Source: a virus
Lineage: Duplodnaviria > Caudoviricetes
Virus record (IMG/VR): IMGVR_UViG_3300034374_008818
Span: 1 to 56,930 of that record
Direction: 5' to 3' (one strand)
Length of the DNA stretch: 56,930 bases
This document shows positions 1-55,335 of this stretch, one piece after another; position 1 is the stretch's first letter, and the number at the start of each line of letters is the position of its first letter. The translations under genes were made by a program, and so were the position numbers. Below the pieces are notes generated by a model that did not search any database, had not been told where the DNA came from, and saw nothing but the letters and a program-made list of their open reading frames with translations.

Positions 1-6
1 TGAAGA

Positions 7-39
7 ACACAAATGAAAAAAGCCCCCAGTGAAGGGGGC
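7..39 (-). promoter_or_regulatory. Hairpin-N12-TGT element 1 (putative hairpin promoter/terminator)
   Basis: + strand ACA(7-9)-N12-GCCCCC-agtgaa-GGGGGC; 6-nt loop variant; its downstream gene lies outside the window. Confidence 0.6.
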
Positions 40-45
40 AAGGTA

Positions 46-327
46 TCAGGCAGCAGGTGCCATGGAGGGCTTAACTTCCTCCTTATCCTTAAGGAAAGGC
101 AGGTAAGAGCCAGTGGTCTGCTTGAGATGACCACCAGTGGCAAGTAAGCCAGTGGCAAGAGTGCCACCAATGACATAGCCAGGGGCTACAGCAGTAGCAA
201 TGAATGCAGCGCCACCAAAGGTAGCAACACCAGTGCCAACAGCAGCAATGGTGAGTGCATTCTGGTCAGTCAAAAAGTCAAGTGCTGCACCAGAGGAGGT
301 GTCAACAGACTTGTGAATAGCAGCCAT
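46..327 (-). CDS. Hypothetical small membrane protein (93 aa), early array
   Basis: ORF with two Gly/Ala-rich hydrophobic stretches; ATG 327 (MAAIHKS) preferred to the track start at 366. Confidence 0.7.
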   Translation of the reverse strand: MAAIHKSVDTSSGAALDFLTDQNALTIAAVGTGVATFGGAAFIATAVAPGYVIGGTLATGLLATGGHLKQTTGSYLPFLKDKEEVKPSMAPAA

Positions 328-362
328 AGAAATATACAGAGTAAGTGAACAAGCCCATAAGG

Positions 363-393
363 GCACAAGACGACAAAGCCCCCGTTAGGGGGC
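363..393 (-). promoter_or_regulatory. Hairpin-N12 element 2
   Basis: GCA-N12-GCCCCC-gtta-GGGGGC. Confidence 0.6.
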
Positions 394-399
394 GAGAGG

Positions 400-522
400 T
401 CAGATGTCACACGACAGGGGAGTGCCACGCCAAGTCCAGGAGTACCAAGCGTCACCAATGCGTGTGTAGACAAAGTTCTCAGTCAGCCAACGGTCTGCTT
501 CGAACGGTAGAGGATAGTACAT
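400..522 (-). CDS. Micro-protein, 40 aa (MYYPLPFEADRW...SCDI), not in ORF track
   Basis: Hand-translated ATG 522 to TGA 400; fills the space between two hairpin elements; ATG 31 nt from stem. Confidence 0.7.
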   Translation of the reverse strand: MYYPLPFEADRWLTENFVYTRIGDAWYSWTWRGTPLSCDI

Positions 523-537
523 ATGAATATATAGAGA

Positions 538-568
538 ACAACAAAGGACAAAGCCCCCAATAGGGGGC
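538..568 (-). promoter_or_regulatory. Hairpin-N12-TGT element 3
   Basis: ACA-N12-GCCCCC-aata-GGGGGC. Confidence 0.65.
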
Positions 569-579
569 GTATACAGCTG

Positions 580-723
580 TTAGGAGACGTCTGCCCATTC
601 AGTGATGACACCTTCAGTGTCAACAGTCTCAGGGACAGTAAATAGATCTACAGTAACAAGATCATCTGACTGATCGATCATACGTTCCAGGTATTCACGG
701 TAGGCTTCGATGAATGCAGACAT
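580..723 (-). CDS. Acidic micro-protein, 47 aa (MSAFIEAYREYLERM...WADVS), not in ORF track
   Basis: Hand-translated ATG 723 to TAA 580; ATG 33 nt from stem. Confidence 0.7.
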   Translation of the reverse strand: MSAFIEAYREYLERMIDQSDDLVTVDLFTVPETVDTEGVITEWADVS

Positions 724-740
724 CTATAAATATACGAGGA

Positions 741-771
741 ACACTAAAGAATAAAGCCCGCGCTAGCGGGC
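741..771 (-). promoter_or_regulatory. Hairpin-N12-TGT element 4
   Basis: ACA-N12-GCCCGC-gcta-GCGGGC; the loop supplies the TAG stop of the upstream ORF. Confidence 0.7.
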
Positions 772-885
772 AAGGAGTTTCCTCTTAAGAGCTTTCAAAG
801 CAGCCTTACGGGCTCTCATAGCCTGTGGCTTACGCCTTGGCTTCTGTGCTTTCTTAGAGTGATGTTGATAATTAGGGACATTCAT
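763..885 (-). CDS. Basic micro-protein, 40 aa (MNVPNYQHHSKKAQKPRRKPQAMRARK...), not in ORF track
   Basis: Hand-translated; resembles the QHHSKK..KPQA.R small proteins I recall from cyanophages. Confidence 0.75.
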   Translation of the reverse strand: MNVPNYQHHSKKAQKPRRKPQAMRARKAALKALKRKLLAR

Positions 886-905
886 ATCGATAAACGAGAA
901 GAGAC

Positions 906-936
906 ACAAGATCAATAAAAACCCACGATAGTGGGT
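906..936 (-). promoter_or_regulatory. Hairpin-N12-TGT element 5
   Basis: ACA-N12-ACCCAC-gata-GTGGGT. Confidence 0.7.
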
Positions 937-978
937 AAACATAGATAGTTACAATTAATAAGTGTATTAGTTATAACT

Positions 979-2010
979 ATGCCTAGATTTGCCAATCAAC
1001 GGATTGCTAAGTTAGTTGATTATCTTAAAACGCCACACTCAGAGAGACGTATGGTAAATCAAGATGATCCATATTACTGGGGTCAATCAGGTAGAGCTTG
1101 GCGTCAAGAGCAAGATAATTTGCATAGAGAAATACAAACTGGATACCTGAGTCCAAACCACGCTAAAGCAATACTTCAGACTAAATTCGGTCTGTCTAGT
1201 AAAGAAGCCGGTATGTATGTAAAGTGGTCTTTAGATCCAGACACAAAATGGAGTAGACACGTTGGATTTGGTGTTCCGCAAGCAGAAACTTCGGAACATA
1301 TTATGAATGAGATATTGAATTCATCAGGTATTAAGACTAAATTAAACAACCAAGATGATCCTACTGCAACTGATTTAGTTCGTATGGTAGACAACGTAAA
1401 GCAGTATATTGATGTTCAAAACAGAAATACACTGCCAAATATTATTACAGGTGAAGAGATGGGGACATTAATGCCAATCCTAAATACACCTGCAGGGTTA
1501 GCATCTGAAATTTACGATAAAGCATCACCTAATGACACATTTGGAGTTATTAAACAGGAAATTCAACGTAGGTCACCATACGCTCGTCCAGGAAAAATGT
1601 TCGAGAGTAGAGAGGTTGTTGGTCAAAAGTTTGGACGTCCAAGGATGAGAAACGGGGTAGATCAGCGTAAGCCATTTAAAGAATCACACGTTAAAGATGT
1701 AATCATTGGAGGATATAATGATCCACGTGAATTCGAGGCATACTCATTAAGAAAAGGTCACGGGCCATACGATCCCATGATTCCTTCACGAGTGATAGCT
1801 CAAGATCAAGAGAAACTTAGAAATAATCTAATGGGAATGACTAAAGCTGAGTATGAGAAATTAGGAGGAGCAGTCTTAAATGATGACTATAGGAAATCGA
1901 TGGATTTGTATCTCCCCGTCAATATGATCGAGGAGATGTCAAAACCAGATACAGAATATATCGCCAAGGAGGTATTAGAAGCTTTGGATTGGGCTAAACG
2001 GAATAGTTAG
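979..2010 (+). CDS. Hypothetical protein (343 aa), possible PD-(D/E)xK-like fold
   Basis: Long ORF, TACAAT at 950-955; E...ATDL...YIDVQ pattern is only weakly nuclease-like. Confidence 0.75.
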   Translation: MPRFANQRIAKLVDYLKTPHSERRMVNQDDPYYWGQSGRAWRQEQDNLHREIQTGYLSPNHAKAILQTKFGLSSKEAGMYVKWSLDPDTKWSRHVGFGVPQAETSEHIMNEILNSSGIKTKLNNQDDPTATDLVRMVDNVKQYIDVQNRNTLPNIITGEEMGTLMPILNTPAGLASEIYDKASPNDTFGVIKQEIQRRSPYARPGKMFESREVVGQKFGRPRMRNGVDQRKPFKESHVKDVIIGGYNDPREFEAYSLRKGHGPYDPMIPSRVIAQDQEKLRNNLMGMTKAEYEKLGGAVLNDDYRKSMDLYLPVNMIEEMSKPDTEYIAKEVLEALDWAKRNS

Positions 2011-2191
2011 CCTGAATATAATCCCAAAGAAACTGCTGCTTTTCAGTCAAGGCATCGCCATTGTCTAGCGACACACAGATGTCACCAAGGCAGTAGTTGA
2101 CAAAATCTAATACACCATACTCTTTGTCAGGCCGACGATCGGCTTGGCGAGTAAGAAACTCCTTATAAAGAGTGTCGAAATCGTAAGTCAT
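1994..2191 (-). CDS. Hypothetical protein (65 aa), early array
   Basis: ORF track; ATG 2191 (MTYDFD) fits the conserved hairpin spacing. Confidence 0.7.
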   Translation of the reverse strand: MTYDFDTLYKEFLTRQADRRPDKEYGVLDFVNYCLGDICVSLDNGDALTEKQQFLWDYIQANYSV

Positions 2192-2209
2192 AGTAAGAAA
2201 TAAACAATA

Positions 2210-2240
2210 ACACCACACGAAAAACTCCCCGGTAGGGGGG
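2210..2240 (-). promoter_or_regulatory. Hairpin-N12-TGT element 6
   Basis: ACA-N12-CTCCCC-ggta-GGGGGG (one G:T pair). Confidence 0.65.
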
Positions 2241-2252
2241 AGTCTTAGGTTA

Positions 2253-2477
2253 TCAGGCAACAGCCTGCTTCTTAAGGGTAGCCAGGCTACGGTTACGAGT
2301 GAGGGGAGTGAAACCCTTAGCGAGGAGGAAATCCTCGAAGTGAGTCATCTCATAGCCGCTACGGAAGACGTGTTGCTTACCGAAGCCATTCTTGGCAACG
2401 AAGCAGTCGTCGCTAAAGCGGATAAGACGCCAAGAGGCATTACCGCGAGTCAACACAACAGACTTCAAACCAGACAT
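2253..2477 (-). CDS. Hypothetical protein (about 74 aa), early array
   Basis: ORF track; ATG 2477 (MSGLKSV) fits the spacing; ATG 2483 is an alternative. Confidence 0.7.
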   Translation of the reverse strand: MSGLKSVVLTRGNASWRLIRFSDDCFVAKNGFGKQHVFRSGYEMTHFEDFLLAKGFTPLTRNRSLATLKKQAVA

Positions 2478-2494
2478 AATCATAATTGATAACA

Positions 2495-2525
2495 ACACAA
2501 AAGAAAAACACCCGCGTTAGCGGGT
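2495..2525 (-). promoter_or_regulatory. Hairpin-N12-TGT element 7
   Basis: ACA-N12-ACCCGC-gtta-GCGGGT. Confidence 0.7.
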
Positions 2526-2539
2526 GAAGGGGTATACAA

Positions 2540-2761
2540 TTAAGGGATACGGGGGTAGACAGCCTTCCACAAACGAGAGGAAGCCTTACAAGTCTTATCG
2601 GTAATATAGTAAAAACCGCAGCCTATGCCATACACACAGCCGACAAAAGGAAATAGAATCCATCCACCAAGAAGGAGGATAGGAGAGGAAGCAAATAGAA
2701 TTAGCAAGAGGGTTCCAGCCAATTCCTTCTTGCTTGTCTTAGGCTGAATAGAAGTAGTCAT
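2540..2761 (-). CDS. Hypothetical membrane protein (73 aa), early array
   Basis: ORF with long hydrophobic segment; ATG 2761 (MTTSIQ). Confidence 0.7.
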   Translation of the reverse strand: MTTSIQPKTSKKELAGTLLLILFASSPILLLGGWILFPFVGCVYGIGCGFYYITDKTCKASSRLWKAVYPRIP

Positions 2762-2775
2762 AAAGTTAATTGATA

Positions 2776-2806
2776 ACACTAAAGAAATAAACCCACGATA
2801 GTGGGT
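2776..2806 (-). promoter_or_regulatory. Hairpin-N12-TGT element 8
   Basis: ACA-N12-ACCCAC-gata-GTGGGT. Confidence 0.7.
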
Positions 2807-2810
2807 GAAA

Positions 2811-2911
2811 GTAGGTCGCTTACCGGGAAGGAGAAGTAGGTCGCTTCTAGGTCGCTTAATGGTAGGGGGGGGGTAGTAGGTCGCTTACCGGGAAGGAGAA
2901 GTAGGTCGCTT
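2811..2911. repeat. Cluster of five (G)TAGGTCGCTT repeats including a 36-bp direct duplication
   Basis: Copies at 2811, 2836, 2848, 2876, 2901; 2811-2846 is identical to 2876-2911. Confidence 0.95.
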
Positions 2912-2917
2912 ACCAAG

Positions 2918-2945
2918 ACATAAAAAAAAACCCCTGGGGAGGGGT
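2918..2945 (-). promoter_or_regulatory. Variant hairpin element 9 / terminator
   Basis: ACA-N9-ACCCCT-gggg-AGGGGT with poly-A; U-tract on the minus strand. Confidence 0.5.
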
Positions 2946-2951
2946 TATGAG

Positions 2952-3095
2952 TCACTGATGCCAGCGTCGATGATAGTTATCCATAGTAACGAGATTAACG
3001 GCTAGAGACATACCTGCAGTTGGTAGAATTAAAGACGCTGCTATCATCTGATATAACACTAGCTTGCATAAATCATACTTCTGAGAGTCAGACAT
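2952..3095 (-). CDS. Micro-protein, 47 aa, paralog of 3274-3441, not in ORF track
   Basis: Hand-translated; PTAGMSLAVNLVTMDNYHRRW vs PTAGMSLAINCMSYDNYQRRW. Confidence 0.8.
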   Translation of the reverse strand: MSDSQKYDLCKLVLYQMIAASLILPTAGMSLAVNLVTMDNYHRRWHQ

Positions 3096-3111
3096 ATTAA
3101 AGTTATAAACT

Positions 3112-3142
3112 ACATCAATGGATAAAACCCGCGATAGCGGGT
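3112..3142 (-). promoter_or_regulatory. Hairpin-N12-TGT element 10
   Basis: ACA-N12-ACCCGC-gata-GCGGGT. Confidence 0.7.
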
Positions 3143-3147
3143 GATAC

Positions 3148-3215
3148 GTCGCTTGCGAGTCAGTTAGTATGTCGCTTGTAGGTCGCTTAAAGGAAAGAAG
3201 AAGAGTAGGTCGCTT
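3148..3215. repeat. Second cluster of GTCGCTT/GTAGGTCGCTT repeats (4 copies)
   Basis: Copies at 3148, 3171, 3178, 3205. Confidence 0.9.
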
Positions 3216-3221
3216 AGCAAG

Positions 3222-3252
3222 ACACAGTAGTTTAAAACCCCCGTTAGGGGGT
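3222..3252 (-). promoter_or_regulatory. Hairpin-N12-TGT element 11 (heads a non-coding repeat unit)
   Basis: ACA-N12-ACCCCC-gtta-GGGGGT. Confidence 0.7.
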
Positions 3253-3273
3253 GGTAGTCAGTAGTTAATTAAA

Positions 3274-3441
3274 TCAGTCGATGTCACACCAAGTAATGGA
3301 TTCGGGATACCAACGACGTTGATAGTTGTCGTAAGACATACAGTTAATAGCGAGTGACATACCAGCAGTAGGGAATGCTAACGCTAAGCCAGCAATTTGC
3401 TTTCCAACTAACATAAGAGTGTCTGCTTGTTGCGGAGTCAT
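3274..3441 (-). CDS. Small hydrophobic protein (55 aa; 62 aa from ATG 3462)
   Basis: ORF track; ATG 3441 fits the conserved spacing; paralog of 2952-3095. Confidence 0.75.
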   Translation of the reverse strand: MTPQQADTLMLVGKQIAGLALAFPTAGMSLAINCMSYDNYQRRWYPESITWCDID

Positions 3442-3458
3442 AGATTCAATGTAATTTG

Positions 3459-3489
3459 ACATAAAAGAAATAAACCCGCGTTAGCGGGT
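3459..3489 (-). promoter_or_regulatory. Hairpin-N12-TGT element 12
   Basis: ACA-N12-ACCCGC-gtta-GCGGGT. Confidence 0.7.
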
Positions 3490-3496
3490 GAAGTAA

Positions 3497-3664
3497 TTAT
3501 CGGAAGTCGCAGTAACGATAGGGTGAGTCATAGTCAGTCACACGGATTATGTCAGAGTAGTTACGTAACTCATTAACCATTGATGCATACTCATTAGCAT
3601 CATAAGTGTCATAGCCGTGGTTGTAATCACACTCACCTTCACGGATAATGTCGTAATCATTCAT
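3497..3664 (-). CDS. Tyr/Asp-rich micro-protein, 55 aa (MNDYDIIREG...YCDFR), not in ORF track
   Basis: Hand-translated ATG 3664 to TAA 3497; ATG 32 nt from stem. Confidence 0.7.
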   Translation of the reverse strand: MNDYDIIREGECDYNHGYDTYDANEYASMVNELRNYSDIIRVTDYDSPYRYCDFR

Positions 3665-3680
3665 AGTAAAATTACAAATT

Positions 3681-3711
3681 ACACAGTAATCGACACCACT
3701 CGATAGAGTGG
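3681..3711 (-). promoter_or_regulatory. Hairpin-N12-TGT element 13 (first in direction of transcription, no U-tract)
   Basis: ACA-N12-CCACTC-gata-GAGTGG; compensatory stem changes relative to the other copies. Confidence 0.7.
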
Positions 3712-4308
3712 GGGTAGGGGTGGTAGGAGCTGATACCCTCAGCGAGACACAGGGTTACTTAAGATACGCATAAGTCACGACAGGGGTGTGTAACTTCTGA
3801 CGATAGGGGGAGGTAACCTGTGGTTACTGAAGTGAGCCCGAGTACGAAACACACGATACGAATTCGTATCACCACAAAAGATTAATACGAAAGATAATTA
3901 TGTAGTGAAGAATTCGAGTGTGTTAACTCGGGTGAACAAAGAAACAAATGTGAAACTTGAGTGAAACGAAAGTTGAACAACGATTGTTATACACTTCAGC
4001 CGAACACAAAGGCTCACAAACAAACGCTTCACTTCAATTAACATCTGACTTCACAGTAGTTATTTTTTTTGTTTGAGCCCCAGTTCGGGTACAGAGGGTA
4101 TTAAACGTGTCTAAAATTTTGTACCATTTTTTACCCTCTATAGGGGGTTTTTAGTACCCCAAAAGTCGCCACTTTGGGCAATAAGCAGGGCTCCAGTATG
4201 TAGTGTGATTATCTTATTGAGAATCAATAGCAATAGAGGCTGTGATACCCTAGTAAAAGCACCTACTCTCCCTGCTTGTATACGTTGGTTTTAGAGTCGA
4301 ACGCAAAA

Positions 4309-4439
4309 CTACGCTAACTACGGTAGTTTTCTATATACCCCTTTTTTAATTCACCCCTAGCCCCTACTAGTGAATTTTTTTAGAAAGGGTTAGATAAGAA
4401 GGTAGTTAGTGTAGCATCGTAGTTTTTGTAGAATAAATA
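4309..4439. repeat. 130-bp CTAC/GTAG inverted-repeat element, copy 1
   Basis: CTACGCTAACTAC(4309-4321)...GTAGTTAGTGTAG(4402-4414) around an AT-rich core; homologous to 49333-49459. Confidence 0.85.
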
Positions 4440-4461
4440 GAACATCAACATTTAAAAAATA

Positions 4462-5907
4462 ATGGGCAAGTTTACTCCGGGTTATATCACTGTCCCAGGT
4501 AAAGGTAGAAGGTATCGTGATGCTGATGGTAATTATTTCGGCATTGAGCCTGGATTTGGCATGCAGACTATGTTGGAATTTTTCGATCCAACTGTTAAAG
4601 GTCAACCAAGCTACGGTGCCTATCAAAACTCAACACCGAGCACATCGCGTCGTTATAATGATTCTGAAAGTAAAATTAAAGCGATTCAATCAAACGGTTC
4701 AGCACTGATCAACCGTTCTGGTGTCACTCCTGTAGATGGAAGTTTTCGTAAAGCTGTAGAGCAAGGTACTGACGGTAATCGCCCTTCAAGTGCTGGTAAC
4801 GCTGGTTCCGGCAACGCTGGTTCCAGTAACGGTGGTTCCGGTAACGGTGGTTCCGGTAACGGTAAGGGGTCTGCACCAGCACCTTCAAGCAACGGTGGCA
4901 ACACTGGACGTAACGACACTCGTGTAAATAACGGTGGAGTAGTTCAATCTGGCACCAACATGGGTCCAAAGCTTCCCACGTTAGATGAACTGAGTGCTTA
5001 TGCAGGTGCACCAGTTGCTAACTTTGCTGGCCCATCGTTCCCCACACAGCCAGCAACCAACCGCATCACTGCTTCTTACCCCAACACCACAGGTGATGGT
5101 ATGGAAACAGTGGACCTTGGCGGGGGCAATATCTACAAAGCTGACCGCAATGGTCGCATCATCGGTGCAGCAAACGGAAATGAGGGCGATAAGTTCGAAG
5201 GTTCCCAGCTGCCTACTACAAAAGGCAACCCATTTAGCGGAAATCCTGCCGATAGTCCGCAGTTTAGGTCCGATTTACCCGGAATTATTGGTCAATCCTA
5301 CGACAGTTACCACACTAATAACGGATTAAACGCCGCATCCAACGTTTCAGGTAAAGGAACCCCCGCATTTAGCGGCAAAGAAGAGCAAATTAAGGGCGCA
5401 TCTAGCCGTCCTAGCGGCTCATTAGCTGATTCTCTTAGCGATGGAAGCGATTTACGGTTCAATTCCGCCAATTACAAGCCATCTGAAGGCTTCAAGGTGT
5501 CTGATGGTGCATCATCCTCGGAAGAAATGCGTCGTCGGCGTGCATTCTTAGATGCACCGGACAGTATGAGCGGAATCAAGCGCGTTGAAGCTGGTCTTGG
5601 CTACCAAGTTCTTAATGGTAAAGCATATATGAACATCAATGGTGAGATCAAAGAGGGTGATGTAAGCGAAGTCCGTAAAATCAAGAATGCTGCACCAGGT
5701 CAAGCGCAAGGATTGAAGGATGCTTACGTTGAATCCATTATAGGCAAGACTAAAGAGAACAATACTTCCGAGAATCCTCCGTTAACTCCAGCAGCTGCCC
5801 AAAATCCCAGTGTTCAAAACAATGAACTCTCGCCATTTATACAATCACTGCCTGGCAACAAGAAATCAAACCTTCCAAACCAGGTAATGGGCATCGGAAG
5901 TATCTGA
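4462..5907 (+). CDS. Gly/Ser/Asn-rich hypothetical protein, probable internal virion protein
   Basis: 481-aa ORF, low complexity, first gene of the + strand block, TAGAAT at 4429. Confidence 0.75.
   Translation: MGKFTPGYITVPGKGRRYRDADGNYFGIEPGFGMQTMLEFFDPTVKGQPSYGAYQNSTPSTSRRYNDSESKIKAIQSNGSALINRSGVTPVDGSFRKAVEQGTDGNRPSSAGNAGSGNAGSSNGGSGNGGSGNGKGSAPAPSSNGGNTGRNDTRVNNGGVVQSGTNMGPKLPTLDELSAYAGAPVANFAGPSFPTQPATNRITASYPNTTGDGMETVDLGGGNIYKADRNGRIIGAANGNEGDKFEGSQLPTTKGNPFSGNPADSPQFRSDLPGIIGQSYDSYHTNNGLNAASNVSGKGTPAFSGKEEQIKGASSRPSGSLADSLSDGSDLRFNSANYKPSEGFKVSDGASSSEEMRRRRAFLDAPDSMSGIKRVEAGLGYQVLNGKAYMNINGEIKEGDVSEVRKIKNAAPGQAQGLKDAYVESIIGKTKENNTSENPPLTPAAAQNPSVQNNELSPFIQSLPGNKKSNLPNQVMGIGSI
4801..4860 (+). 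repeat. Four tandem 15-bp units encoding [AG]GS[GS]N
   Basis: gctggttccggcaac / gctggttccagtaac / ggtggttccggtaac x2. Confidence 0.9.
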
Positions 5908-14732: not shown

Positions 14733-16271
14733 ATGGCAATACCTAGTGCATCATTAGCTTATAGAAGGTCAGCATTAATGACCGCAACGAAGGTAACGAC
14801 CAAACCACCTTCAGAAGAAGTACTACGTGCACGAGATGACTTCAAAGACTTCTGTGTCTTTATGGGTAAAGCACCTGCAAAGCATATGTTGGAGTGGCAC
14901 GCTCAGCTGTGTACAGGAGAAGACAGCGAATGTTTAATGGGAATTGGTGGACCTAACACAGCTATCCTTGCACCACGTGGTTCTGCAAAAAGCACAGTCC
15001 TAGGCTTATTTGCTGCTTGGATGATTGGCAGACATGCAGCTGCAAAGAAGATGCTGCGTATCTTGTACATCGCATATATGGTTGACATTAGCCGTGCAAA
15101 GTCAGCAACAATCAAAGGCATCTTAACCAGCAGTAAATACCGTGAAGTCTTTCCAATGGTAAGACTATCAAAAATTAAACGGAGTGATGAATATTGGAGT
15201 ATTGATTATGACTTTGCGGGAATCGATACAGCGGGTGAGGAAGCATTTACTATTGCCTGTGGTGGTCTTAAAGGAGCCATCACCTCTAAACGATCACAGC
15301 TGGTTCTTATCGATGACCCTATCAAATCAGCTGCGTCAATCAATAATCCGGATATTCGCCGTGAGATGGAACAGACGTGGAGTAACGTTATTGCGCCCAC
15401 TATGTTCCAAGGTGCACGAGCCATTTGTCTGGGTACCCGTTTTCACTTTGACGATATCCACGCCACACTATTTGTTCCCAAAAACAACTGGAAACAAATT
15501 ATCCAGAAAGCAGTCATAACAGACCCTGACGGTAAACAACGTTCATATTGGCCAGAGTTCTGGTCAATGAAATATCTCAATGAACGTAAGAATGAAGACC
15601 GTGTTGCTTTTGCTTATCAGTATCTCAATACAGCTGTTCGCAGTGAAGATGCAGGAATCTCTCCAGAGCTTATCTGTAAAGGTATTGTGCCAGAAGACTA
15701 CGACTGCTTAGGTGTAGGAATTGACCTTAGTGCCGGTATAGGTGAGAAGAATGACTGGACAGTTATGACACTCGGTGGCATCAAAGATGGCAAAATCTAT
15801 TTGATTGACCAACGACGTGCACGGACAATGGGCAATCTTGAGAAGATGGACACCCTCTGTGAAATGTTGGCAGATTGGAACATCCTTGTAGAAAACGATG
15901 ATGGTCAATACTTCCCAACAATGTCACCATGTGTGATATGGCCAGAAGCTGTTGCCTATCAAACATCATTTGAAGGTGATTTTAAACGTGTAATGTTTGA
16001 ACAACGAGCGCTCTACAACTTACACTGCTCACCAGTTAAAGGCTTCAAGGGTGACAAACTTGCAAGGCTTAGAGGTGTGATGGGTCTATATGAACACAAG
16101 AGAGTTATCTGGAATAAATGGAGAGTATGGAATGTCTTAGAAGAAGAGCTATTGAACTTCGGACATACGCAACATGATGATGCAGTTGATTCTATGGTGC
16201 TTACTATGGGAGGCTTATTGAGAAGAGGAAATCTACAATTAGACTACAATGAGAATAGTTTCGCATTATAG
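14733..16271 (+). CDS. terL: Terminase large subunit
   Basis: Walker A APRGSAKST, Walker B LVLIDDPIK, GTRFHFDD, nuclease GIDLS..DWTV and HDDAVDS. Confidence 0.93.
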   Translation: MAIPSASLAYRRSALMTATKVTTKPPSEEVLRARDDFKDFCVFMGKAPAKHMLEWHAQLCTGEDSECLMGIGGPNTAILAPRGSAKSTVLGLFAAWMIGRHAAAKKMLRILYIAYMVDISRAKSATIKGILTSSKYREVFPMVRLSKIKRSDEYWSIDYDFAGIDTAGEEAFTIACGGLKGAITSKRSQLVLIDDPIKSAASINNPDIRREMEQTWSNVIAPTMFQGARAICLGTRFHFDDIHATLFVPKNNWKQIIQKAVITDPDGKQRSYWPEFWSMKYLNERKNEDRVAFAYQYLNTAVRSEDAGISPELICKGIVPEDYDCLGVGIDLSAGIGEKNDWTVMTLGGIKDGKIYLIDQRRARTMGNLEKMDTLCEMLADWNILVENDDGQYFPTMSPCVIWPEAVAYQTSFEGDFKRVMFEQRALYNLHCSPVKGFKGDKLARLRGVMGLYEHKRVIWNKWRVWNVLEEELLNFGHTQHDDAVDSMVLTMGGLLRRGNLQLDYNENSFAL

Positions 16272-17012: not shown

Positions 17013-19265
17013 ATGACAAACTCTATACAATCAGAATTTAAACAAATCCTCACTGCAGCAAAAGAACGAAGAGGGGATTTATCTGTTGACAGCATGATTG
17101 TGTCTTCGCATTTAGCGCAGATGCGTATGTTTATGCTGCGTCGTGGTATTGAGTTTTATGCAGAACAAGATAGCTTTGGTAAACGTCGTCAGTTTATTGC
17201 TGATGTCTGTGAGCATAATATGCTCGACATGAAGCTTGATAGCATTATTGATTACTTCTTATGTGATGGTCAAGGTCTTTTCTACTTCAGACCGTCAGGT
17301 GAAGACTACCAGCTGTTATTCTTCCCAAAAGATAGCTACCGTGCTTATCGCAATCAAAAGAATGAAATTGACAGCATCGTACTTGTCTACAGTTTTGCTG
17401 TAAAACAAAATAAAGGTTTAGATGCCTACGCTGAGACTAACGAGCGTGGCGGTAAAAAGAAATACATCCGATTGAAGGTCTATAAAGACCGTATTGAACA
17501 AACAATCTCCAACGAGAAGATTGAGTTTGACGACACTCCAGGAGTAATGCCAGGACATATGCCTGGTATGACAGAAACACTTACTAACAGCTTAGGTTTT
17601 ATTCCAGCTGTCGAAGTGTTTAATCATATGGATTGCACAGGTGAAGCTACTGGTAATGGTGAGTTTGACTGGTTAGCACACCAGATTTTGTATCACGATG
17701 AGCTGACCCGCAACATCCGTAAAAACCTCAAGTTCTTTGGTAACCCCACTCTGGTATCAAGCCGTCCTCGTCACGACCTGATTGAAAGCGGTGATGAGAA
17801 CACCTTCCGCCCAACCATCAGTTCACAAGCTGGATTTGCACCAATGACTGGTGGGTCTATGCATAGTACCCGCGTCAGTCAACCATTTGGTAAGAGTTCA
17901 ATTGACGGACAGATTAAAGTTCCGCGTGTGATTGCAAACCTTGAGCCTACAGACCGTGTGTCTTATATGACACCTGACAGTGTCTCTGGTGACCAGAACT
18001 TATACGTCAAAAACTATAGATCCGAAATTCGTTTAGCACTCGGCGGTGTTGATGACCTTGACATTAACCTTGCCAGCACTGCTTATGAAATCAAAACACT
18101 TTACGGTCGTGTAGCTGCAACAGCAGAGAAAAAAGCCAAAGCACTGTTTAACTACGGTCTATGTCGTCTTTTCTCAATGATGATTATGCATGAAGAAGAG
18201 CTGTTCCGTAAATCGTTTGCAGTAGCTATTGGATTGCAAGAACCAGTTATGCCTCTACCTGAGGAATATGCAAATGACCCTGAAGCATTTCAGAAAGAAT
18301 ATGAGAAATATCAGAAGAAACATCAGAAGTTTATTAAAGAAAGAGAAGATAGTATCCGTGCTACACTTGAGTCAGGCAATATGCCTATTGGAGTTGTTGG
18401 ATTGATTCCTGACGGTAGCTCAAAAGTTAGCTGGCGTTGGATGGGTCAAGTCTTCGAAGACAGTCCCGACGACGTGCTACAACACAGCATCGTTGTTCGT
18501 AACCTTCAAGAATTAGGTGTTGATTCAATTGAAGCACTTAAGTACTTGTTCCCAGACAAAACGGAAGAAGAGAGGGCAGCAATGCTTTCTGGCTATCCGT
18601 TCAGAATGGTTCAACAAACACAACAGTCTTTAAACCAGTTCATTGGATTACTCGGCAACCTCTATCAGTTGCCACATCCACAGACGCCAGATATGCCATT
18701 AGCGTCTGATCCGAATCTTGATATCACAGGATTCTTATATAGATCACTCGAATTTTTACGTAAGGAGTTAAGTTACAGTGGAAGTTACAAGCCAGACAGC
18801 GACGGCCCCAGTGTCAGCGCCCTCAGCGATGCCGACGAGCGTCGCGCAGCCCTCGGCCTCCCCGTCCGCGATGAGCCAACCGTCGACCTCCCAGGCTTAT
18901 CAGGCGGCCCCGGTAGCACAACCCCAGGTACCAACTTACCAACCGGCAGCGGCCCAGCAGGCTTCGGCACCTCAGGGGAATCCGTGGCAGGAAGCGTTCC
19001 AGGCGCTCTCCGCAAGTTTGAATACAAGCAGCCCCTCCCCAGCCCAGGTTCAACAATCGGCGTACCAGACACCAACGCCACAGGCGCTTCAACAAGCAAG
19101 CTGGGCTTCAGCCCCTCAGCAGCAATGGGCTCCTACGGCGCAGCCGACTTACAGTCCCCAAGCTTCAACCCAAGCCTACTCAACCGCCCAGGCTCCAATG
19201 CAAGGGCAGGCTCAAGAAGCAGTCAGCGACGCGTATCTAAGTCAAATCAGCGATCAAAGTCTTGA
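17013..19265 (+). CDS. Portal protein (probable) with long low-complexity C-terminal extension
   Basis: Position after TerL; TNSLGFIPAVEVFN...GEFD portal-like motif; size. Confidence 0.75.
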   Translation: MTNSIQSEFKQILTAAKERRGDLSVDSMIVSSHLAQMRMFMLRRGIEFYAEQDSFGKRRQFIADVCEHNMLDMKLDSIIDYFLCDGQGLFYFRPSGEDYQLLFFPKDSYRAYRNQKNEIDSIVLVYSFAVKQNKGLDAYAETNERGGKKKYIRLKVYKDRIEQTISNEKIEFDDTPGVMPGHMPGMTETLTNSLGFIPAVEVFNHMDCTGEATGNGEFDWLAHQILYHDELTRNIRKNLKFFGNPTLVSSRPRHDLIESGDENTFRPTISSQAGFAPMTGGSMHSTRVSQPFGKSSIDGQIKVPRVIANLEPTDRVSYMTPDSVSGDQNLYVKNYRSEIRLALGGVDDLDINLASTAYEIKTLYGRVAATAEKKAKALFNYGLCRLFSMMIMHEEELFRKSFAVAIGLQEPVMPLPEEYANDPEAFQKEYEKYQKKHQKFIKEREDSIRATLESGNMPIGVVGLIPDGSSKVSWRWMGQVFEDSPDDVLQHSIVVRNLQELGVDSIEALKYLFPDKTEEERAAMLSGYPFRMVQQTQQSLNQFIGLLGNLYQLPHPQTPDMPLASDPNLDITGFLYRSLEFLRKELSYSGSYKPDSDGPSVSALSDADERRAALGLPVRDEPTVDLPGLSGGPGSTTPGTNLPTGSGPAGFGTSGESVAGSVPGALRKFEYKQPLPSPGSTIGVPDTNATGASTSKLGFSPSAAMGSYGAADLQSPSFNPSLLNRPGSNARAGSRSSQRRVSKSNQRSKS

Positions 19266-20733: not shown

Positions 20734-21672
20734 ATGTCGCAACCAAAGATTTCAGGTGACTCAGTTCGTGCTTATCTACGTGATATCGGACGCATTCCAC
20801 TTCTAGAGCACGATGAAGAGATTCTCTTGGGTCGTCAAGTTCAGCGGTTAATGGAAATCAAAGAACAGAAAGAATCCCTTAACCTTGATAATGAAGGGTT
20901 AGCTGCCGCTAGTGATATCACATTAAAACAACTTAAGCGGGAGATTCGTGAAGGTGAGAAAGCCAAAGACAAGATGGTCACGGCAAACTTACGGCTCGTC
21001 GTTTCTGTGGCGAAGAAATACACTAAACGAAATATGGAACTCCTCGACATTATTCAAGAGGGGACCATTGGCCTCGTTCGCGGTGTGGAAAAATTTGATC
21101 CGGGTCGTGGTTATAAGTTTAGTACTTACGCTTATTGGTGGATTCGTCAAGGGATCACTCGCGCAATCGCTGAAAAATCGAGGGCGATTAGGTTACCAAT
21201 TCACGTTACAGAAAACCTCAACCGCCTTAAGAAAGCCCAGCGTGAACTGAGTCAGATGAATGGTTATATGCCAAGCATCCATCAACTCTCAGATTACCTT
21301 GAACTGTCAGTAGATGACATCAAAGATTTAATGTGTAAAGCACGTCAGCCTACATCTCTAGAAATCAAGATTGGAGAAAATCGTGACACAGCGCTGATTG
21401 ATCTTTTAGAAGATGAGACACAGCTTCCAGAGATGCTGCTTGAAAAAGCTTTGATCAAGGAAGATATGCACAGTATGATTCGAGATTTACCTGACCTGCA
21501 AGCAGCAGTAATCAGTATGCGGTATGGCATTGGTGATGAGCTGTTTGAAGCTATGTCAATGACAGCCATTGGCCAAGTATTAAATATGAGCCGTGACAGA
21601 GTGCGTACTCTGGAGCATAAAGCAATTAAAACTTTAAAAGAGCGTGGTGATTTAGTGAGTGAATATCTTTAA
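20734..21672 (+). CDS. rpoD: RNA polymerase sigma factor, RpoD/SigA family (cyanobacterial group 2-like)
   Basis: DSVRAYLRDIGRIPLL, ANLRLVVSVAKKY, DIIQEG.IGL.R.VEKFDP.RGYKFSTYAYWWIRQ, region 4 SRDRVR. Confidence 0.97.
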   Translation: MSQPKISGDSVRAYLRDIGRIPLLEHDEEILLGRQVQRLMEIKEQKESLNLDNEGLAAASDITLKQLKREIREGEKAKDKMVTANLRLVVSVAKKYTKRNMELLDIIQEGTIGLVRGVEKFDPGRGYKFSTYAYWWIRQGITRAIAEKSRAIRLPIHVTENLNRLKKAQRELSQMNGYMPSIHQLSDYLELSVDDIKDLMCKARQPTSLEIKIGENRDTALIDLLEDETQLPEMLLEKALIKEDMHSMIRDLPDLQAAVISMRYGIGDELFEAMSMTAIGQVLNMSRDRVRTLEHKAIKTLKERGDLVSEYL

Positions 21673-23574: not shown

Positions 23575-24729
23575 ATGTGGATTGATAATGATTTTCCGAA
23601 GCTTCTTGGTGCAGAGCTTTATCGTCCCCACCCCGCCTACATCATTGAGATGGCTGTAGAGCCGGTGGTTGTGCACGATTTCTCCAAGCAGCCTGGTCAG
23701 ACGGTCCAACTGGATCGCTACCGCTTCTGGGGTAAGCCTGGTACCAAGGAGTCCCGTGAGCGGACCGCTGATCAAACTCTTGGATCTGCTTCCGCACGCA
23801 ACATCGTCAAGGACAAGGTGCTCGTGACTCTGCGTGAGTACACTGGCCCCGCTGATTCCCGCGACGCAACTCAACCTTCTACCTTCAAGGTGGCTCGTGA
23901 GACCCTGATTACCGCCCAGCGTCTGCTGCTGGACACCGGTAACCTGAACGTCTTCCACCAGTCCATCGGTTCACTCACCCTGCTTGACGACTATCGTCGC
24001 TGGCGTGATCGCGTGTTTGCTAACGAGCTTCTGAAAGCTGAAGCCTGTGGCCGCGCAAGTAACGAGCAAGGTGGTTACTACCTGCCCGGCGGCAAAGAAA
24101 AAGGTTCCGAACCCACTGCTGGTGACTTGGGTGTCAAATACGAAGCTGGCGAATCCGGCAAGTTCGACGTCAAGACCGACCTGCTGGAAGTGGTCAAGGA
24201 CATGCGTAAGCGCAACGTTCCGACCTTCGCTGACGGTTACTACCGCTGTATTTGTGATCCCACTGCAATGATGCACCTGCGTCAGAACAGTGACTTCCGC
24301 GAGATCGCACGTTATCCCGGACAGGGTCTCATCGATCCGATGAACCCCATCACTGGTCCTTCTGCCAACTTCTTCCAAGGCATGGGTCCTGCTTACGGTC
24401 AAGCTGGCTTTGTTGCTGGTCAACCCGTTATGCCGACTGGCTTCCTGTTTGAGGGTGTCCGTTGGTTCGAGTCCACCAACCTGCCTGAAACCTCTTACAA
24501 CCTGACTATTACCGATGCGACTGCCGCCGCTGCTGATTACGGCGCTGCTCAGTTGATCTTCTTCGGTCCTCAGGCTGTGGGCGTGGGTATTGGTGGTAAC
24601 AATGCTCAGATTCTGTTGAACAACAACGACGACTTCAGCCGTTTCATCATCATGATCTGGTCTCTGTTCGCCGGTTTTGAAACCCTGAATAAGGATTTCA
24701 TTACGGTTGGTTACTCTTTCGTATATTGA
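23575..24729 (+). CDS. Major capsid protein (HK97 fold, N4-gp56-like)
   Basis: 384 aa, strongly biased codon usage, KQPGQTVQL and LREY motifs, position in head module. Confidence 0.85.
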   Translation: MWIDNDFPKLLGAELYRPHPAYIIEMAVEPVVVHDFSKQPGQTVQLDRYRFWGKPGTKESRERTADQTLGSASARNIVKDKVLVTLREYTGPADSRDATQPSTFKVARETLITAQRLLLDTGNLNVFHQSIGSLTLLDDYRRWRDRVFANELLKAEACGRASNEQGGYYLPGGKEKGSEPTAGDLGVKYEAGESGKFDVKTDLLEVVKDMRKRNVPTFADGYYRCICDPTAMMHLRQNSDFREIARYPGQGLIDPMNPITGPSANFFQGMGPAYGQAGFVAGQPVMPTGFLFEGVRWFESTNLPETSYNLTITDATAAAADYGAAQLIFFGPQAVGVGIGGNNAQILLNNNDDFSRFIIMIWSLFAGFETLNKDFITVGYSFVY

Positions 24730-36086: not shown

Positions 36087-37763
36087 ATGACTACTGTAAG
36101 CTCACTGGGAGTTGATCAGCTAAGCCTGCGTGGGTCGGGTACTGATTACAACATTCTTTCCCGTTTCTTCGCAACCAAAGCCCAAGCCGATGCTGCCCTT
36201 GCAGACAGTAGCTGGGTTCCTACCGCTGGTAAAACCAACGGTTGTATTACTGGCGACCAAGGCATTCTTGTTTATGATTTTGGCACGTCTGCTCTGGTCG
36301 TTGCTGACGCTGCTACTCGTTCTTACGTCGATACTGAAGTAGCCGCTGCAGTCGCCGCTCTTGTTGATAGCGCACCTGGCACCCTTGATACTCTCAATGA
36401 GCTTGCAGCTGCCATCAATGATGACGCTAATGCTTTTACCACTCTGCAGACTGCTATTGCAGCAGTGCAAACTGACGTTGACCAAAACGAAAGCGATGCT
36501 GATGCTGCTATTGCTGCAGTCCAAGCAGATGTTGACCAGAATGAAAGTGACGCTGATGCAGCCATCGCTGCTGTTCAAGCCGATGTAGACCAGAACGAAG
36601 CAGACGCCGACGCTGCCATTGCAGCAGAGAACGCAGCAATGCTCGCTGCCGTCGCTGTTGTTCAAGCAGATGTCGATCAAAACGAAGCTGACGCTGATGC
36701 TGCAATCGCAGCAGAAAACGCAGCTATGTTGGCTGCTGTTGCCGTTGTCCAGGCTGATATAGACGCTAACGAAACTGCTGCTAACGCTGCCATCGCTGCT
36801 GTTCAAGCAGACGTAGACCAAAATGAAGCTGATGCTGATGCAGCTATTGCAGCTGTTCAAGCTGATGTAGACCAGAATGAAGCCGACGCTGATGCAGCAA
36901 TCGCTCTGAAGGCAGATATCGATAGCCCCACCTTCACCGGTACTCCTGCTGCTCCTACCGCTGGCGCTGGTACTAACACCACTCAACTGGCTACTACTGC
37001 ATTCGTTACCGCCGCTGTTGCTGCTTTAGTTGACGGTGCACCTGGTGCAATCGATACCCTCAACGAACTGGCTGCTGCTCTCGGTGACAACGCCAACTTC
37101 TCTACCACCATCACCAACAGCATCGCTGCTGTTCAATCTGATGTTGACCAAAACGAAGTTGACGGTGACGCTGCTGACAGTGCACTCTCTGGTCGCCTCG
37201 ATGTGCTTGAAGCAGATGCAACTACTGCCGCAGCTGTTGCAGCAGTCCAAGCTGATGTTGACCAAAACGAGGCTGACGCTGACGCTGCTATTGCACTGAA
37301 AGCTGACATTGCTTCTCCTGCTCTGACCGGTACTCCAACTGCTCCTACTGCAGCAGCTGATACCAACACTACGCAGATTGCTACGACTGCCTACGTTCAG
37401 ACTGAAGTGTCTGACCTTATTGGTGATGCTCCTGTAAGCCTCAACACTCTGGGCAAGATTGCTGATTCGCTGAACGACGACATTAACGGTCTCACTAACG
37501 TCACCACCCTGGTGAACGCTAACGAAACTCACGTTGATAACCTTGCAACTCTGACTGGTGTTGCTAAAGACAGTGTCAACCTCGGCACTTTCACCGGCTC
37601 CACGATTACCGACAGCGTTGCTATTAAGGTTGCATTGCAAGAGCTGGAGACGGAAGTTGAAACGAAGATTGCTGCAGAAACCCTGACGCTTACCGCATTC
37701 CAAACGGTGGTTGCTGCTTCTTCTGACTTTGCTGATTTCCAGTCCCGCGTTGCTGCTCTCTGA
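36087..37763 (+). CDS. Ala-rich coiled-coil tail fibre with 18-aa repeats
   Basis: AAIAAVQADVDQNEADAD repeats; SP.[FL]TGTP.APTA...TNTTQ.ATTA[FY]V fibre motif twice. Confidence 0.85.
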   Translation: MTTVSSLGVDQLSLRGSGTDYNILSRFFATKAQADAALADSSWVPTAGKTNGCITGDQGILVYDFGTSALVVADAATRSYVDTEVAAAVAALVDSAPGTLDTLNELAAAINDDANAFTTLQTAIAAVQTDVDQNESDADAAIAAVQADVDQNESDADAAIAAVQADVDQNEADADAAIAAENAAMLAAVAVVQADVDQNEADADAAIAAENAAMLAAVAVVQADIDANETAANAAIAAVQADVDQNEADADAAIAAVQADVDQNEADADAAIALKADIDSPTFTGTPAAPTAGAGTNTTQLATTAFVTAAVAALVDGAPGAIDTLNELAAALGDNANFSTTITNSIAAVQSDVDQNEVDGDAADSALSGRLDVLEADATTAAAVAAVQADVDQNEADADAAIALKADIASPALTGTPTAPTAAADTNTTQIATTAYVQTEVSDLIGDAPVSLNTLGKIADSLNDDINGLTNVTTLVNANETHVDNLATLTGVAKDSVNLGTFTGSTITDSVAIKVALQELETEVETKIAAETLTLTAFQTVVAASSDFADFQSRVAAL

Positions 37764-48396: not shown

Positions 48397-48452
48397 AAAT
48401 ACTTATTAGTCAGCACGATATGAGGTGCTAAGGTACAGCTGGCAACGTCTTA

Positions 48453-48480
48453 ACCGAGGGTTCGAATCCCACCCTCTCCG
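48453..48480 (+). mobile_element. attP core: 3' end of a tRNA (Ser-like)
   Basis: ACCGAGGGTTCGAATCCCACCCTCTCCG = T-arm plus acceptor 3' strand; no 5' half upstream; 72 nt before the integrase. Confidence 0.8.
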
Positions 48481-48491
48481 TTAAACACACT

Positions 48492-48516
48492 AAAGCCCAC
48501 ACATCGTGGGCTTTTT
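48492..48516 (+). terminator. Rho-independent terminator after the tRNA fragment
   Basis: AAAGCCCAC-acatc-GTGGGCTTTTT. Confidence 0.8.
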
Positions 48517-48552: not shown

Positions 48553-49341
48553 ATGGCTCAAATGAAAGTGCACGAACTAGCGACCAAGCTAGAGAAGCTT
48601 TACAAACCCACAGCCAGTACCTACAGCTATTGGCAAAAGTCAATCAAACCAATTGCACACCTCAGCCTCCAAGACATATCTGATGAGGTGGTGCTTGATT
48701 ACAGGGTCAATGGTCTTGAGACACTGTCGGAGGGCACACTTAAAACACGCATCGGTTATCTCAAAGGTCTGTGGAACAAGGCACGTAAGTGGAAGCTAAT
48801 CAAAGGTGAGAACCCTTGGCAGTACGCGGATGATGGCCTTTCTCATAGGCGTAGAGACCCCGAGCTCTACCCTTGGGAGCACTACGCTTACTACCACGAT
48901 GACCCTTACTTCGTATGCCTGTGGTACACAGGATGCCGCATCGGTGAAATTGCAGGAATCTACAAAGAGAACGTCGTATTAGATGCGCCCATCCCTTATT
49001 TCAATTTTGTACATCAAGATAATAGGCGCCTTAAAAATGATGAGTCTGTAAGAAAGGTACCCATACACCCTGCTTGTAGGCCGTATGTGAGTGACCTTTA
49101 TCTATCTAAAGCAAGGTCACCTGGTCGTAGCTGGAGTGAGACCTTTCGTCAGAACATGGGACTACCACCTGGGGATGCAGCCCATAGTCTCAGACATAGT
49201 TTTACAAGCAGGATGAACGAAGCAGGCATTATTGAGAGAGTTCAAGATGCCATACTTGGGCACGCGTCACCTTCTATAACAAGCCGCTACGGTAGGGTAA
49301 CTTTATCGATGATGGACAAAGAGATACAAAAGCTACAGTAA
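48553..49341 (+). CDS. int: Tyrosine recombinase/integrase
   Basis: YTGCRIGEI (R), LKN (K), HSLRH, LGH, RYG (Y). Confidence 0.92.
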   Translation: MAQMKVHELATKLEKLYKPTASTYSYWQKSIKPIAHLSLQDISDEVVLDYRVNGLETLSEGTLKTRIGYLKGLWNKARKWKLIKGENPWQYADDGLSHRRRDPELYPWEHYAYYHDDPYFVCLWYTGCRIGEIAGIYKENVVLDAPIPYFNFVHQDNRRLKNDESVRKVPIHPACRPYVSDLYLSKARSPGRSWSETFRQNMGLPPGDAAHSLRHSFTSRMNEAGIIERVQDAILGHASPSITSRYGRVTLSMMDKEIQKLQ

Positions 49342-51908: not shown

Positions 51909-51971
51909 CTTACTATTAATGTAGCTATTTATACAAGTTCACGGCGAACTTTTTGTAGGTCTTTACTTTCT

Positions 51972-52074
51972 ATTCTTATAAACAGTGGTCTCACTTCGTA
52001 AACGATTGAGCTCTTCAGTACCTTCCATTCTTATATTCAAAGGTCTCATTTCGTAAACGATTGAGCTCTTCAGT
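51972..52074. repeat. Imperfect tandem duplication, 55-bp period
   Basis: ATTCTTATA...GGTCTCA.TTCGTAAACGATTGAGCTCTTCAGT at 51972 and 52027. Confidence 0.9.
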
Positions 52075-54386: not shown

Positions 54387-54525
54387 TGGACTTCTCAATA
54401 ATTTCGTAATCAGGGTATTCAGTTTTTACTTTATTCCTGACCCAAGCGTTAAATTTAGGTGGATTAAATTGTTTACTAATAGTGACAGTTTTCTTTTTAT
54501 GGTTAACTTTAATCGATCTCTTCAT
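54373..54525 (-). CDS. 50-aa basic micro-protein, not in ORF track
   Basis: Hand-translated MKRSIKVNHKKK...; ATGA-coupled to the upstream gene. Confidence 0.55.
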   Translation of the reverse strand: MKRSIKVNHKKKTVTISKQFNPPKFNAWVRNKVKTEYPDYEIIEKSNADS

Positions 54526-54755: not shown

Positions 54756-54791
54756 AATAAATAAAAAACATTTGAATAATAAGCACGCTGA

Positions 54792-55277: not shown

Positions 55278-55335
55278 ATCAACTCTCCTATCAAGTAAAG
55301 TCTAGCTAAAAGATAGTAAAACTGCGCCCTGCTTG

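Follow-up and report, generated by a model that had tools for sequence, protein, structure and literature searches.

The window, which is the whole stretch of DNA analysed here, is an IMG/VR virus record of 56,930 bases that is classed as linear, with a completeness estimate of 72% and about 28% of the genome missing. It encodes a large terminase (14733–16271), a virion protein of 750 aa (17013–19265), a major head protein (23575–24729) and, among the virion genes, a sigma-70-family factor complete with regions 1.2, 2, 3 and 4 (20734–21672, plus strand). A family-A DNA polymerase on the minus strand (53079–55962) is split into an exonuclease part (55336–55962) and a polymerase part (53079–54398), with a NUMOD3-type homing-endonuclease gene (54792–55277, minus strand) and small ORFs between them. 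Tail fibres, two lysis enzymes, several HNH endonucleases and an integrase-like protein are also encoded. The integrase-like ORF (262 aa, 48553–49341, plus strand) lies directly downstream of a fragment resembling the 3' half of a tRNA (48443–48480, plus strand; T-arm GGTTCGAATCC, acceptor strand resembling tRNA-Ser), with a hairpin at 48494–48512 between the two. A tRNA fragment beside an integrase is the usual attP layout, and from this arrangement the phage may be temperate now or may formerly have been so. ARAGORN finds no complete tRNA anywhere in the window. S-EIV1, a relative introduced below, possesses a replication initiator or primase; no such gene was recognised in the window, and it may be located in the missing 28%.

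Among 50,697 deposited phage records the sole match was Synechococcus phage S-EIV1, which aligns with 81% of the 750-aa protein at 47% identity, and IMG/VR holds at least 115 relatives of this virion protein at 67–80% identity, several of them complete genomes of 80–87 kb (the search for relatives, made with the portal-like protein, yielded at least 115, of which 80 were kept). On this match and these relatives we assign the window to the S-EIV1-like freshwater cyanophage lineage, of which it would be an uncultured member. Very little is known about host takeover by S-EIV1-like cyanophages, a widespread freshwater and polar lineage, and their early genes are, to our knowledge, nearly all without known relatives. 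The relatives examined were four complete genomes (G001, G002, G003 and G005), a 22-kb locus (L041), S-EIV1 itself and five further contigs.

A row of early cassettes joined by a conserved element

The minus strand from 3664 down to 1 is occupied by a row of small genes, each followed by a GC hairpin (stem of 5–7 bp, loop of 4–6 nt) and a T-run. Twelve such junctions lie on the minus strand between 3489 and 39. A 17-mer hairpin consensus has five matches at up to three mismatches against 0.04 expected, and terminator-like sites number 18 in the region against 3.9 ± 2.3 in shuffled sequence. The order within a junction is hairpin, about ten T-rich bases, the box (A/T)(A/G)TGT(T/C)CTT... and, 12–18 nt on, a start codon; the cassette start codons are not preceded by a Shine-Dalgarno sequence. 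The first nine nucleotides of the TGTGTTCTTTA-like box resemble the E. coli-type boxA antitermination sequence. A promoter consensus scan returned 10 promoter-like sites against 10.4 ± 3.4 by chance, none of them in junctions, and no sigma-70-type promoter (−35/−10) was recognisable inside the junction; the element may be a phage-specific start signal.

The same consensus of hairpin and TTTATTTCAYTGTGTTCTTTA heads the cassettes of L041, G001, G002, G003 and G005, so that arrays with the junction element are found at 39–3489 of the window (minus strand), 600–6700 of L041, 67–84 kb of G001, 32.4–39.2 kb of G002, 54.1–61.9 kb of G003 and 0.1–13.2 kb of G005. It is far better conserved than the genes between. 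None of ten early-region proteins (the nine minus-strand array ORFs and the plus-strand 343-aa ORF at 979–2010) was matched by tblastn in L041, S-EIV1, L050 or L052. The window has junctions in common with L041 and S-EIV1 but not early proteins, and no two relatives are similar enough for exchange points to be mapped. Cassette content appears to turn over quickly in the S-EIV1-like lineage.

The closest described arrangement for this setting is the PeSL (promoter-early stem-loop) cassettes of T4-type phages, where, in the passages available, orphan genes lie between stem-loop terminators coupled to early promoters, and these elements are reported to bring about the shuffling of the genes (Arbiol et al. 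2010, PMC2839356; Comeau et al. 2014, PMC4122927). As far as those passages go, the two have in common small orphan genes bounded by a conserved composite element, in which a GC-rich terminator-like stem-loop is followed by a start signal, and a junction that is conserved while gene content appears to turn over between relatives. The PeSL promoter described there has a clear sigma-70 consensus, whereas here we find a T-run and a TGTGTTCTTTA-like box without recognisable −35/−10 elements, in an S-EIV1-like cyanophage rather than a T4-type phage. The same passages contain no repeat-filled, ORF-less PeSL cassette.

Several other features of the early region were observed. The plus strand of positions 1–3500 is purine-rich (GC skew +0.11 to +0.13, AT skew +0.20), and since the genes of this region are encoded by the minus strand, their messages have an unusually high pyrimidine content, as do those of the early row of L041. 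A perfect 16-bp palindrome, GATACGAATTCGTATC, lies in the divergent control region at 3853–3872, just downstream of a promoter-like site (3926–3897, minus strand), and is a candidate operator; S-EIV1 and L041 have similar GATACGAAT sequences at the corresponding position, and G002 has four repeats of a related sequence of about 20 nt at 46.1–46.5 kb. A small, very basic protein (…PRRKPQAMRARKAALKALKRKLL; 763–942, minus strand) matches phrog_3309 (E 4e-17), and a G002 cassette at about 35.4 kb encodes a similar C-terminus; this arginine/lysine-rich conserved early protein could bind nucleic acid. L041 (6119–6268, minus strand) and G003 (about 54263–54400, plus strand, within L223) each contain a copy of a conserved gene of about 49 aa that starts with GTG, stops with TGA and uses almost no adenine (its cassette is 4% A); the copies are 82% identical over 45 aa (E 1.5e-23), those differences that were read are mostly synonymous, and the gene is absent from the window.

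Two cassettes filled with copies of a short motif

Two stretches of the row contain, in place of a gene, several copies of the motif AAGCGAC(CTAC). The upstream one, unit 2, follows a micro-gene (paralog A, 3274–3462, minus strand) that encodes 62 aa from the ATG at 3462, with a hydrophobic centre and the C-terminal residues DNYQRRW; from alignment with its paralog, the ATG at 3441, giving 55 aa, is the likely start. The paralog A cassette ends and unit 2 starts at the GC hairpin CACCCCCTAACGGGGGT followed by TTTT (3237–3253, minus strand), a weak T-run (TTTTAAAC). On the minus strand, hairpin 3253–3237 is followed by TTTTAAACTACTGTGTCTTGC and then the motif copies. The inner part of unit 2 (3144–3236, minus strand) comprises the T-run, the box TGTGTCTTGC and four copies on the minus strand, at 3215–3205, 3188–3178, 3177–3167 (ending in ATAC) and 3154–3144 (ending in GTAT), and it ends at the GC hairpin CACCCGCTATCGCGGGT with its T-run (3127–3143, minus strand).

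Unit 1 follows the second micro-gene (paralog B, 47 aa, 2952–3095, minus strand), whose cassette has a terminator-like end formed by the hairpin AACCCCTCCCCAGGGGTT and nine T (2929–2946, minus strand). Here hairpin 2946–2929 and the nine T lead into ATGTCTTGG and the motif copies. The inner part (2808–2928, minus strand) comprises the T-run, the box TATGTCTTGG and five copies on the minus strand, at 2911–2901, 2886–2876, 2857–2847 (ending in TAG), 2846–2836 and 2821–2811. It is closed by the GC hairpin CACCCACTATCGTGGGT with TTATTTCTTT and the box AGTGTT (2791–2807, minus strand), which form the junction to the next gene (2540–2779).

The initial annotation of this array proved correct in every particular that could be checked. 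Its five plus four minus-strand copies were recovered by a scan of the window, and its pyrimidine-rich linkers by the base composition of the inner units (C43 T36 A24 G18 in unit 1, T29 C26 A24 G14 in unit 2), where the linkers are almost without purines and purines are almost confined to the motif. The sizes it had predicted, about 85–130 nt, fit the distances from 3224 to 3127 (98 nt) and from 2920 to 2791 (130 nt). It had also singled out TGTCTTG(G/C) as the head of both units; the box is indeed there (TATGT-CTTGG and TGTGT-CTTGC, against the lineage consensus TGTGTTCTTTA), but it is not special to them, a version of it following every hairpin of the array. Since both units keep the array box, they look like ordinary cassettes with different cargo, and appear ordinary in their boundaries and unusual only in what they carry.

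The nine copies between 2811 and 3215, six of them exact 11-mers, share one orientation and lie on the minus strand, which also codes for the early operon. When the whole 57-kb window was scanned, the 11-mer was confined to this interval. A search allowing up to two mismatches gave 16 matches in the window, the seven others being scattered over both strands with two mismatches each. This total is not unusual, being reached in 15 of 100 shuffles; the unusual feature is the clustering. The core AAGCGAC has 13 matches in the window, every one on the minus strand, against 6.22 ± 2.34 in shuffles, none of 100 reaching 13. Nine of the 13 fall in a single 405-nt stretch, and the four heptamers outside the units lack its remaining bases. 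Measured from centre to centre, successive copies lie 25, 29, 11 and 25 nt apart in unit 1 and 27, 11 and 23 nt apart in unit 2; the intervals are out of helical phase and do not agree between the two paralogous units. Tandem Repeats Finder reported only two 11-nt doublets in the units.

The units were said to be free of ORFs and to end at the next hairpin, and this holds: terminator-like hairpins bound them, and the longest ORFs contained in units 1 and 2 are 3 and 18 codons. The sole ORF that crosses unit 1 (2779–2955, 58 aa) begins within the stop codon of the gene upstream and spans both hairpins; each of the three frames is used for the motif, which is read as VSDLL, GKRPT and (E)ATY. Protein-coding units were rejected on these grounds, and the use of all three frames places the constraint on the motif at the level of nucleotides and not of a protein.

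Within unit 1, positions 2875–2911 and 2810–2846 form an exact 37-nt duplication (motif, linker, motif), a recent gain of one motif copy. Freshwater metagenome DNA runs from several studies carry the stretch nearly unchanged, and in four of them, assembled as contigs, the repeat stretch is unchanged. In keeping with the 37-nt duplication, unitigs in DNA runs break at 2839, 2817–2904 and 2882, where variation in repeat copy number is unreadable. Among the 24 matches listed, the sequencing runs that carry the stretch include no RNA run.

Block duplication and constraint on the motif

Each unit sits directly downstream of one of the micro-gene paralogs, which are identical at 21 of 42 residues (E 1e-14). 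That gene and repeat unit were duplicated together, as originally suggested, is supported both by this match and by the alignment of gene, hairpin, unit and hairpin as one block, with block A (3500–3120) set against block B (3143–2785). Used as a query, the micro-gene alignment found no relative in IMG/VR.

Four motif copies are collinear between the units in the order motif, linker, motif–motif, linker, motif, hairpin. Identity between the units is 40/44 in the motif (28/28 in its core), against 14/32 (44%) in the linkers and 68/126 (54%) in the coding regions of the paralogs (both differences from the motif give Fisher p about 1e-5), in an alignment that is anchored by the motifs themselves and in which gene conversion between copies could mimic selection. 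The motif has thus changed far less than have the linkers or the coding sequence beside it, and four separate islands of identity of 7–11 nt within diverged sequence argue for selection on the motif itself.

Occurrence of the motif outside the window

The initial annotation had named a lack of conservation of the motif in related phages, along with a lack of discrete transcripts, as what would refute it, and no conservation was found in any relative examined. The test is a weak one because the early genes of the window have no counterparts in these relatives. The 11-mer is absent from G001, G002, G003, G005, the 22-kb L041 locus and S-EIV1, in which the core is never clustered (at most two copies per 500 nt, against nine in the window). 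The contigs of the five further relatives hold 13 cores, scattered and without a cluster, and no other cassette in the arrays of the relatives examined is filled with a short repeat. A blastn search with 2400–3700 against the 50,697 phage records gave no match. Used as protein queries, the 343-aa neighbour (979–2010) found no relatives and the 750-aa neighbour found only L041.

Pattern scans were equally negative. A scan of IMG/VR for the motif returned 34 loci, all unrelated by eye, and a metagenome scan for two motif copies within 30 nt returned 58 loci, all of them unrelated tandem or coding repeats and none with hairpins or pyrimidine linkers, the chance rate for tandem repeats being uncalibrated. 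The motif had also been expected to be worth seeking in host genomes; among genomes, the pair pattern occurred at 13 loci (Planctomycetota, Actinomycetota and other MAGs) and at none in cyanobacteria. In the literature, the matches listed for the 11-mer and its complement are, by title, primer-type coincidences, and among those listed for S-EIV1 cyanophages none is on such repeats by title, although supplements might list intergenic repeats.

Possible roles of the repeat units

The feature is real and non-coding, and probably functional, and the PeSL-like row of early cassettes in which it lies is in other respects understood. The units match no known family on the defining features that were tested, and are best described as a variant of a 'repeat-motif sponge RNA' or of a 'direct-repeat binding-site array'. 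The interpretation in the initial annotation was borne out in part: the units are non-coding, hairpin-bounded and duplicated as blocks, with the motif kept, whereas the membership of the CsrB, ToxI or iteron classes that it had raised was not supported. Since the motif is so much better kept than the DNA around it, the units probably bind some factor, as RNA or as DNA.

Our best reading, held tentatively, is that of an early RNA displaying multiple binding sites. Minus-strand transcription of each unit would begin at its own junction element or continue from the upstream micro-gene by read-through, and would stop at the next hairpin and T-run. The product would be a C/U-rich RNA of about 95–130 nt that has no stable internal fold, carries AAGCGACCTAC and displays four or five single-stranded copies of (U)AAGCGAC(CUAC). 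Such an RNA could act as a multivalent binding platform or decoy, titrating a sequence-specific RNA-binding protein or ribonuclease of host or phage at the very start of infection, and its copy number would change by recombination between motif copies. We infer here that the units are transcribed, that a partner of one of these kinds exists and binds the RNA, and that the RNA acts on it as a sponge.

We lean towards RNA in that all nine copies lie on the strand of the surrounding genes and fill the space from box to terminator, an orientation that is equally expected for DNA iterons. The spacings, unphased and differing between the units, are easier to reconcile with sites that act independently along a flexible RNA than with cooperative binding to DNA. 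On folding, neither inner part shows more structure than its shuffled versions (z +0.07 and +1.25), so that the inner RNA is predicted to be a C/U-rich, unstructured chain; with low predicted structure and purines confined to the motif, the motif would be left exposed. Against transcription of unit 1, the hairpin that precedes it has nine T and should terminate well, and no sigma-70-type promoter was recognised. Among the window proteins, which exclude those of the missing 28% of the genome, no RNA-binding protein or ribonuclease was recognised.

Comparison with known multivalent RNAs gives a mixed picture. CsrB and RsmZ bind CsrA through GGA motifs that lie mostly in hairpin loops, and CrcZ binds Hfq/Crc through A-rich motifs. 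Like them, the putative RNA would be short, non-coding and terminator-ended, with several irregularly spaced copies of one motif in an accessible context. CsrB-type membership is contradicted by the inner units, neither of which contains GGA or internal hairpins above the level of shuffles; here the motif is AAGCGAC in an unstructured C/U-rich chain rather than in hairpin loops, and the putative RNA is phage-encoded. Type III antitoxin RNAs consist of regular tandem repeats of about 34–45 nt, those of ToxI being about 36 nt, beside or matching a toxN locus. The units have no such regular repeats, their copies being 11–29 nt apart, which speaks against a ToxI-type element. No ToxN-like protein was found among the neighbouring proteins, nor a host counterpart, the motif pair occurring in no cyanobacterial genome among 13 loci. 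Pseudo-ToxI repeats of phage PhiTE are described as evolving by copy-number expansion (Blower et al. 2012, PMC3475682). To the extent of that description, the likeness is of a phage-borne, non-coding repeat array whose copy number expands and which could act by RNA mimicry against a host protein.

We also looked for known RNAs, targets and partners. Rfam 15 gave two chance-level miRNA matches in positions 1–4500 (E 0.22 and 0.72), neither in the units; with no Rfam match there and no tRNA found by ARAGORN, a known RNA family or tRNA was rejected. An antisense target in the phage was likewise rejected: the motif forms duplexes with phage transcripts of −16.3 and −16.7 kcal/mol, which is no stronger than what 12 shuffled versions of the motif achieve (−14.1 to −16.3), and its complement, at up to two mismatches, has chance-level matches in the window. 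Neighbouring proteins had no match in Pfam or PADLOC (PADLOC on 16 proteins), with no ToxN-like or defence-related neighbour among them, and defence or anti-defence neighbours were dismissed on the lack of a PADLOC match in the 16.

A fuller version of the decoy would be a new early phage RNA in which an unstructured, pyrimidine-rich chain with four or five copies of UAAGCGACCUAC soaks up a sequence-specific RNA-binding protein or a defence ribonuclease of its freshwater cyanobacterial host, with repeat expansion and block duplication of gene plus decoy setting the dose; taken in all these parts together, we judge it unlikely. If the RNA reading is true, a cyanophage example would be added to the very few phage-encoded RNA decoys that are known.

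Sites that act in DNA, their several forms taken jointly, are only slightly less likely than the early RNA. The 11-mers would then be direct-repeat sites for a DNA-binding protein of phage or host, whether as origin iterons or auxiliary sites, as repressor roadblocks in the early operon or as sites modulating a host exonuclease. Nine copies in the same orientation, in two clusters about 300 bp apart and nowhere else in 57 kb, would fit such a role, as would the constraint on nucleotides and the two adjacent pairs with a period of 11 bp, one helical turn. The ori/crr pair of satellite phage P4 also consists of two clusters of asymmetric direct repeats, separated by a few hundred bp and with every repeat pointing the same way; the units resemble it in each of these respects and in the shortness of their repeats. 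The replication initiator or primase seen in S-EIV1 could be encoded in the missing part of the genome, and lysogeny control is conceivable from the integrase-like gene beside the tRNA-like fragment. The motif is however short for an iteron (7–11 bp). Replication-origin iterons are direct repeats of about 17–22 bp with regular, helically phased spacing; here an 11-bp repeat with an invariant 7-bp core has irregular spacings, those of 23–29 bp being out of phase and differing between units, so that the iteron membership once proposed is not borne out. No initiator gene was identified in the window, which represents an estimated 72% of the genome. No AT-rich unwinding stretch stands out beside the units, another difference from P4 and from iterons, and no gene for a DNA-binding protein is adjacent. 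Mycobacteriophage L5 stoperators are asymmetric repressor sites oriented with transcription and dispersed genome-wide. The nine copies on the coding strand of the early operon share that orientation, but all full copies lie within 405 nt, and no repressor gene was identified. If sites in DNA are nonetheless the answer, the units would point to an origin or a lysogeny control site of the S-EIV1-like lineage. As bait in RNA or DNA form, the 11-mer offers a short, concrete handle on the bound factor.

The early decoy RNA must also be weighed against neutral repeat expansion, in which emptied cassettes would have been filled by slippage or unequal recombination and the copies kept alike by gene conversion. 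The rapid turnover of cassette content, with none of ten early proteins matched in relatives, the exact 37-nt duplication as a sign of ongoing unequal recombination, and the absence of the motif from every relative examined all agree with this, and the 58 unrelated metagenome loci, with tandem repeats that hold the same 11-mer, indicate that such repeats arise easily. Conversion tracts limited to 7–11 nt at four places are improbable, however, and would be needed for a collinear order and an invariant core to persist while linkers and genes diverged to 44% and 54% identity; moreover, phage genomes rarely keep about 220 nt of duplicated inert DNA. On balance we think neutral expansion unlikely.

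More improbable still are cis-acting 3' extensions of the micro-gene mRNAs, that is, spacers between tandem terminators that, in place of a free-standing RNA, set read-through, stability or processing of the upstream message or downstream cassette: each unit does follow one paralog and was duplicated with it, and the weak T-run (TTTTAAAC) makes read-through into unit 2 plausible, but nine T follow the hairpin that precedes unit 1, no part of the unit is complementary to the micro-gene, and motif duplexes are no better than shuffled ones. Three further candidates were rejected: an NtcA site, as three motif copies read GTA-N7-TAC and not the consensus GTA-N8-TAC; attP arm-type sites, as the integrase gene and tRNA-like core are about 45 kb away; and a CRISPR-like or solitary repeat, for which the repeat is too short.

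Other repeats

Tandem 11-nt repeats, CAAGCGACC(T/G)(A/G)C, with the same core as the window motif, stand directly upstream of a start codon in four loci, namely L011 and L035 (IMG/VR contigs of 330 and 267 kb), L081 and L098. By hand translation alone, L035 and L081 have an N-terminus in common, MSxTxHTIANAEC…, which that of L011 (MSHSYHKIEC…) resembles loosely and that of L098 (MTHSSSTY…) not at all. The resemblance to the window motif is probably a coincidence, but the 11-nt period and the core agree. Elsewhere in the window, tandem repeats of 54 and 87 nt lie inside a tail-fibre gene (36451–36796), and a 55-nt tandem repeat (2.1 copies, 51964–52078) lies at the start of a 343-aa ORF (52015–53046).
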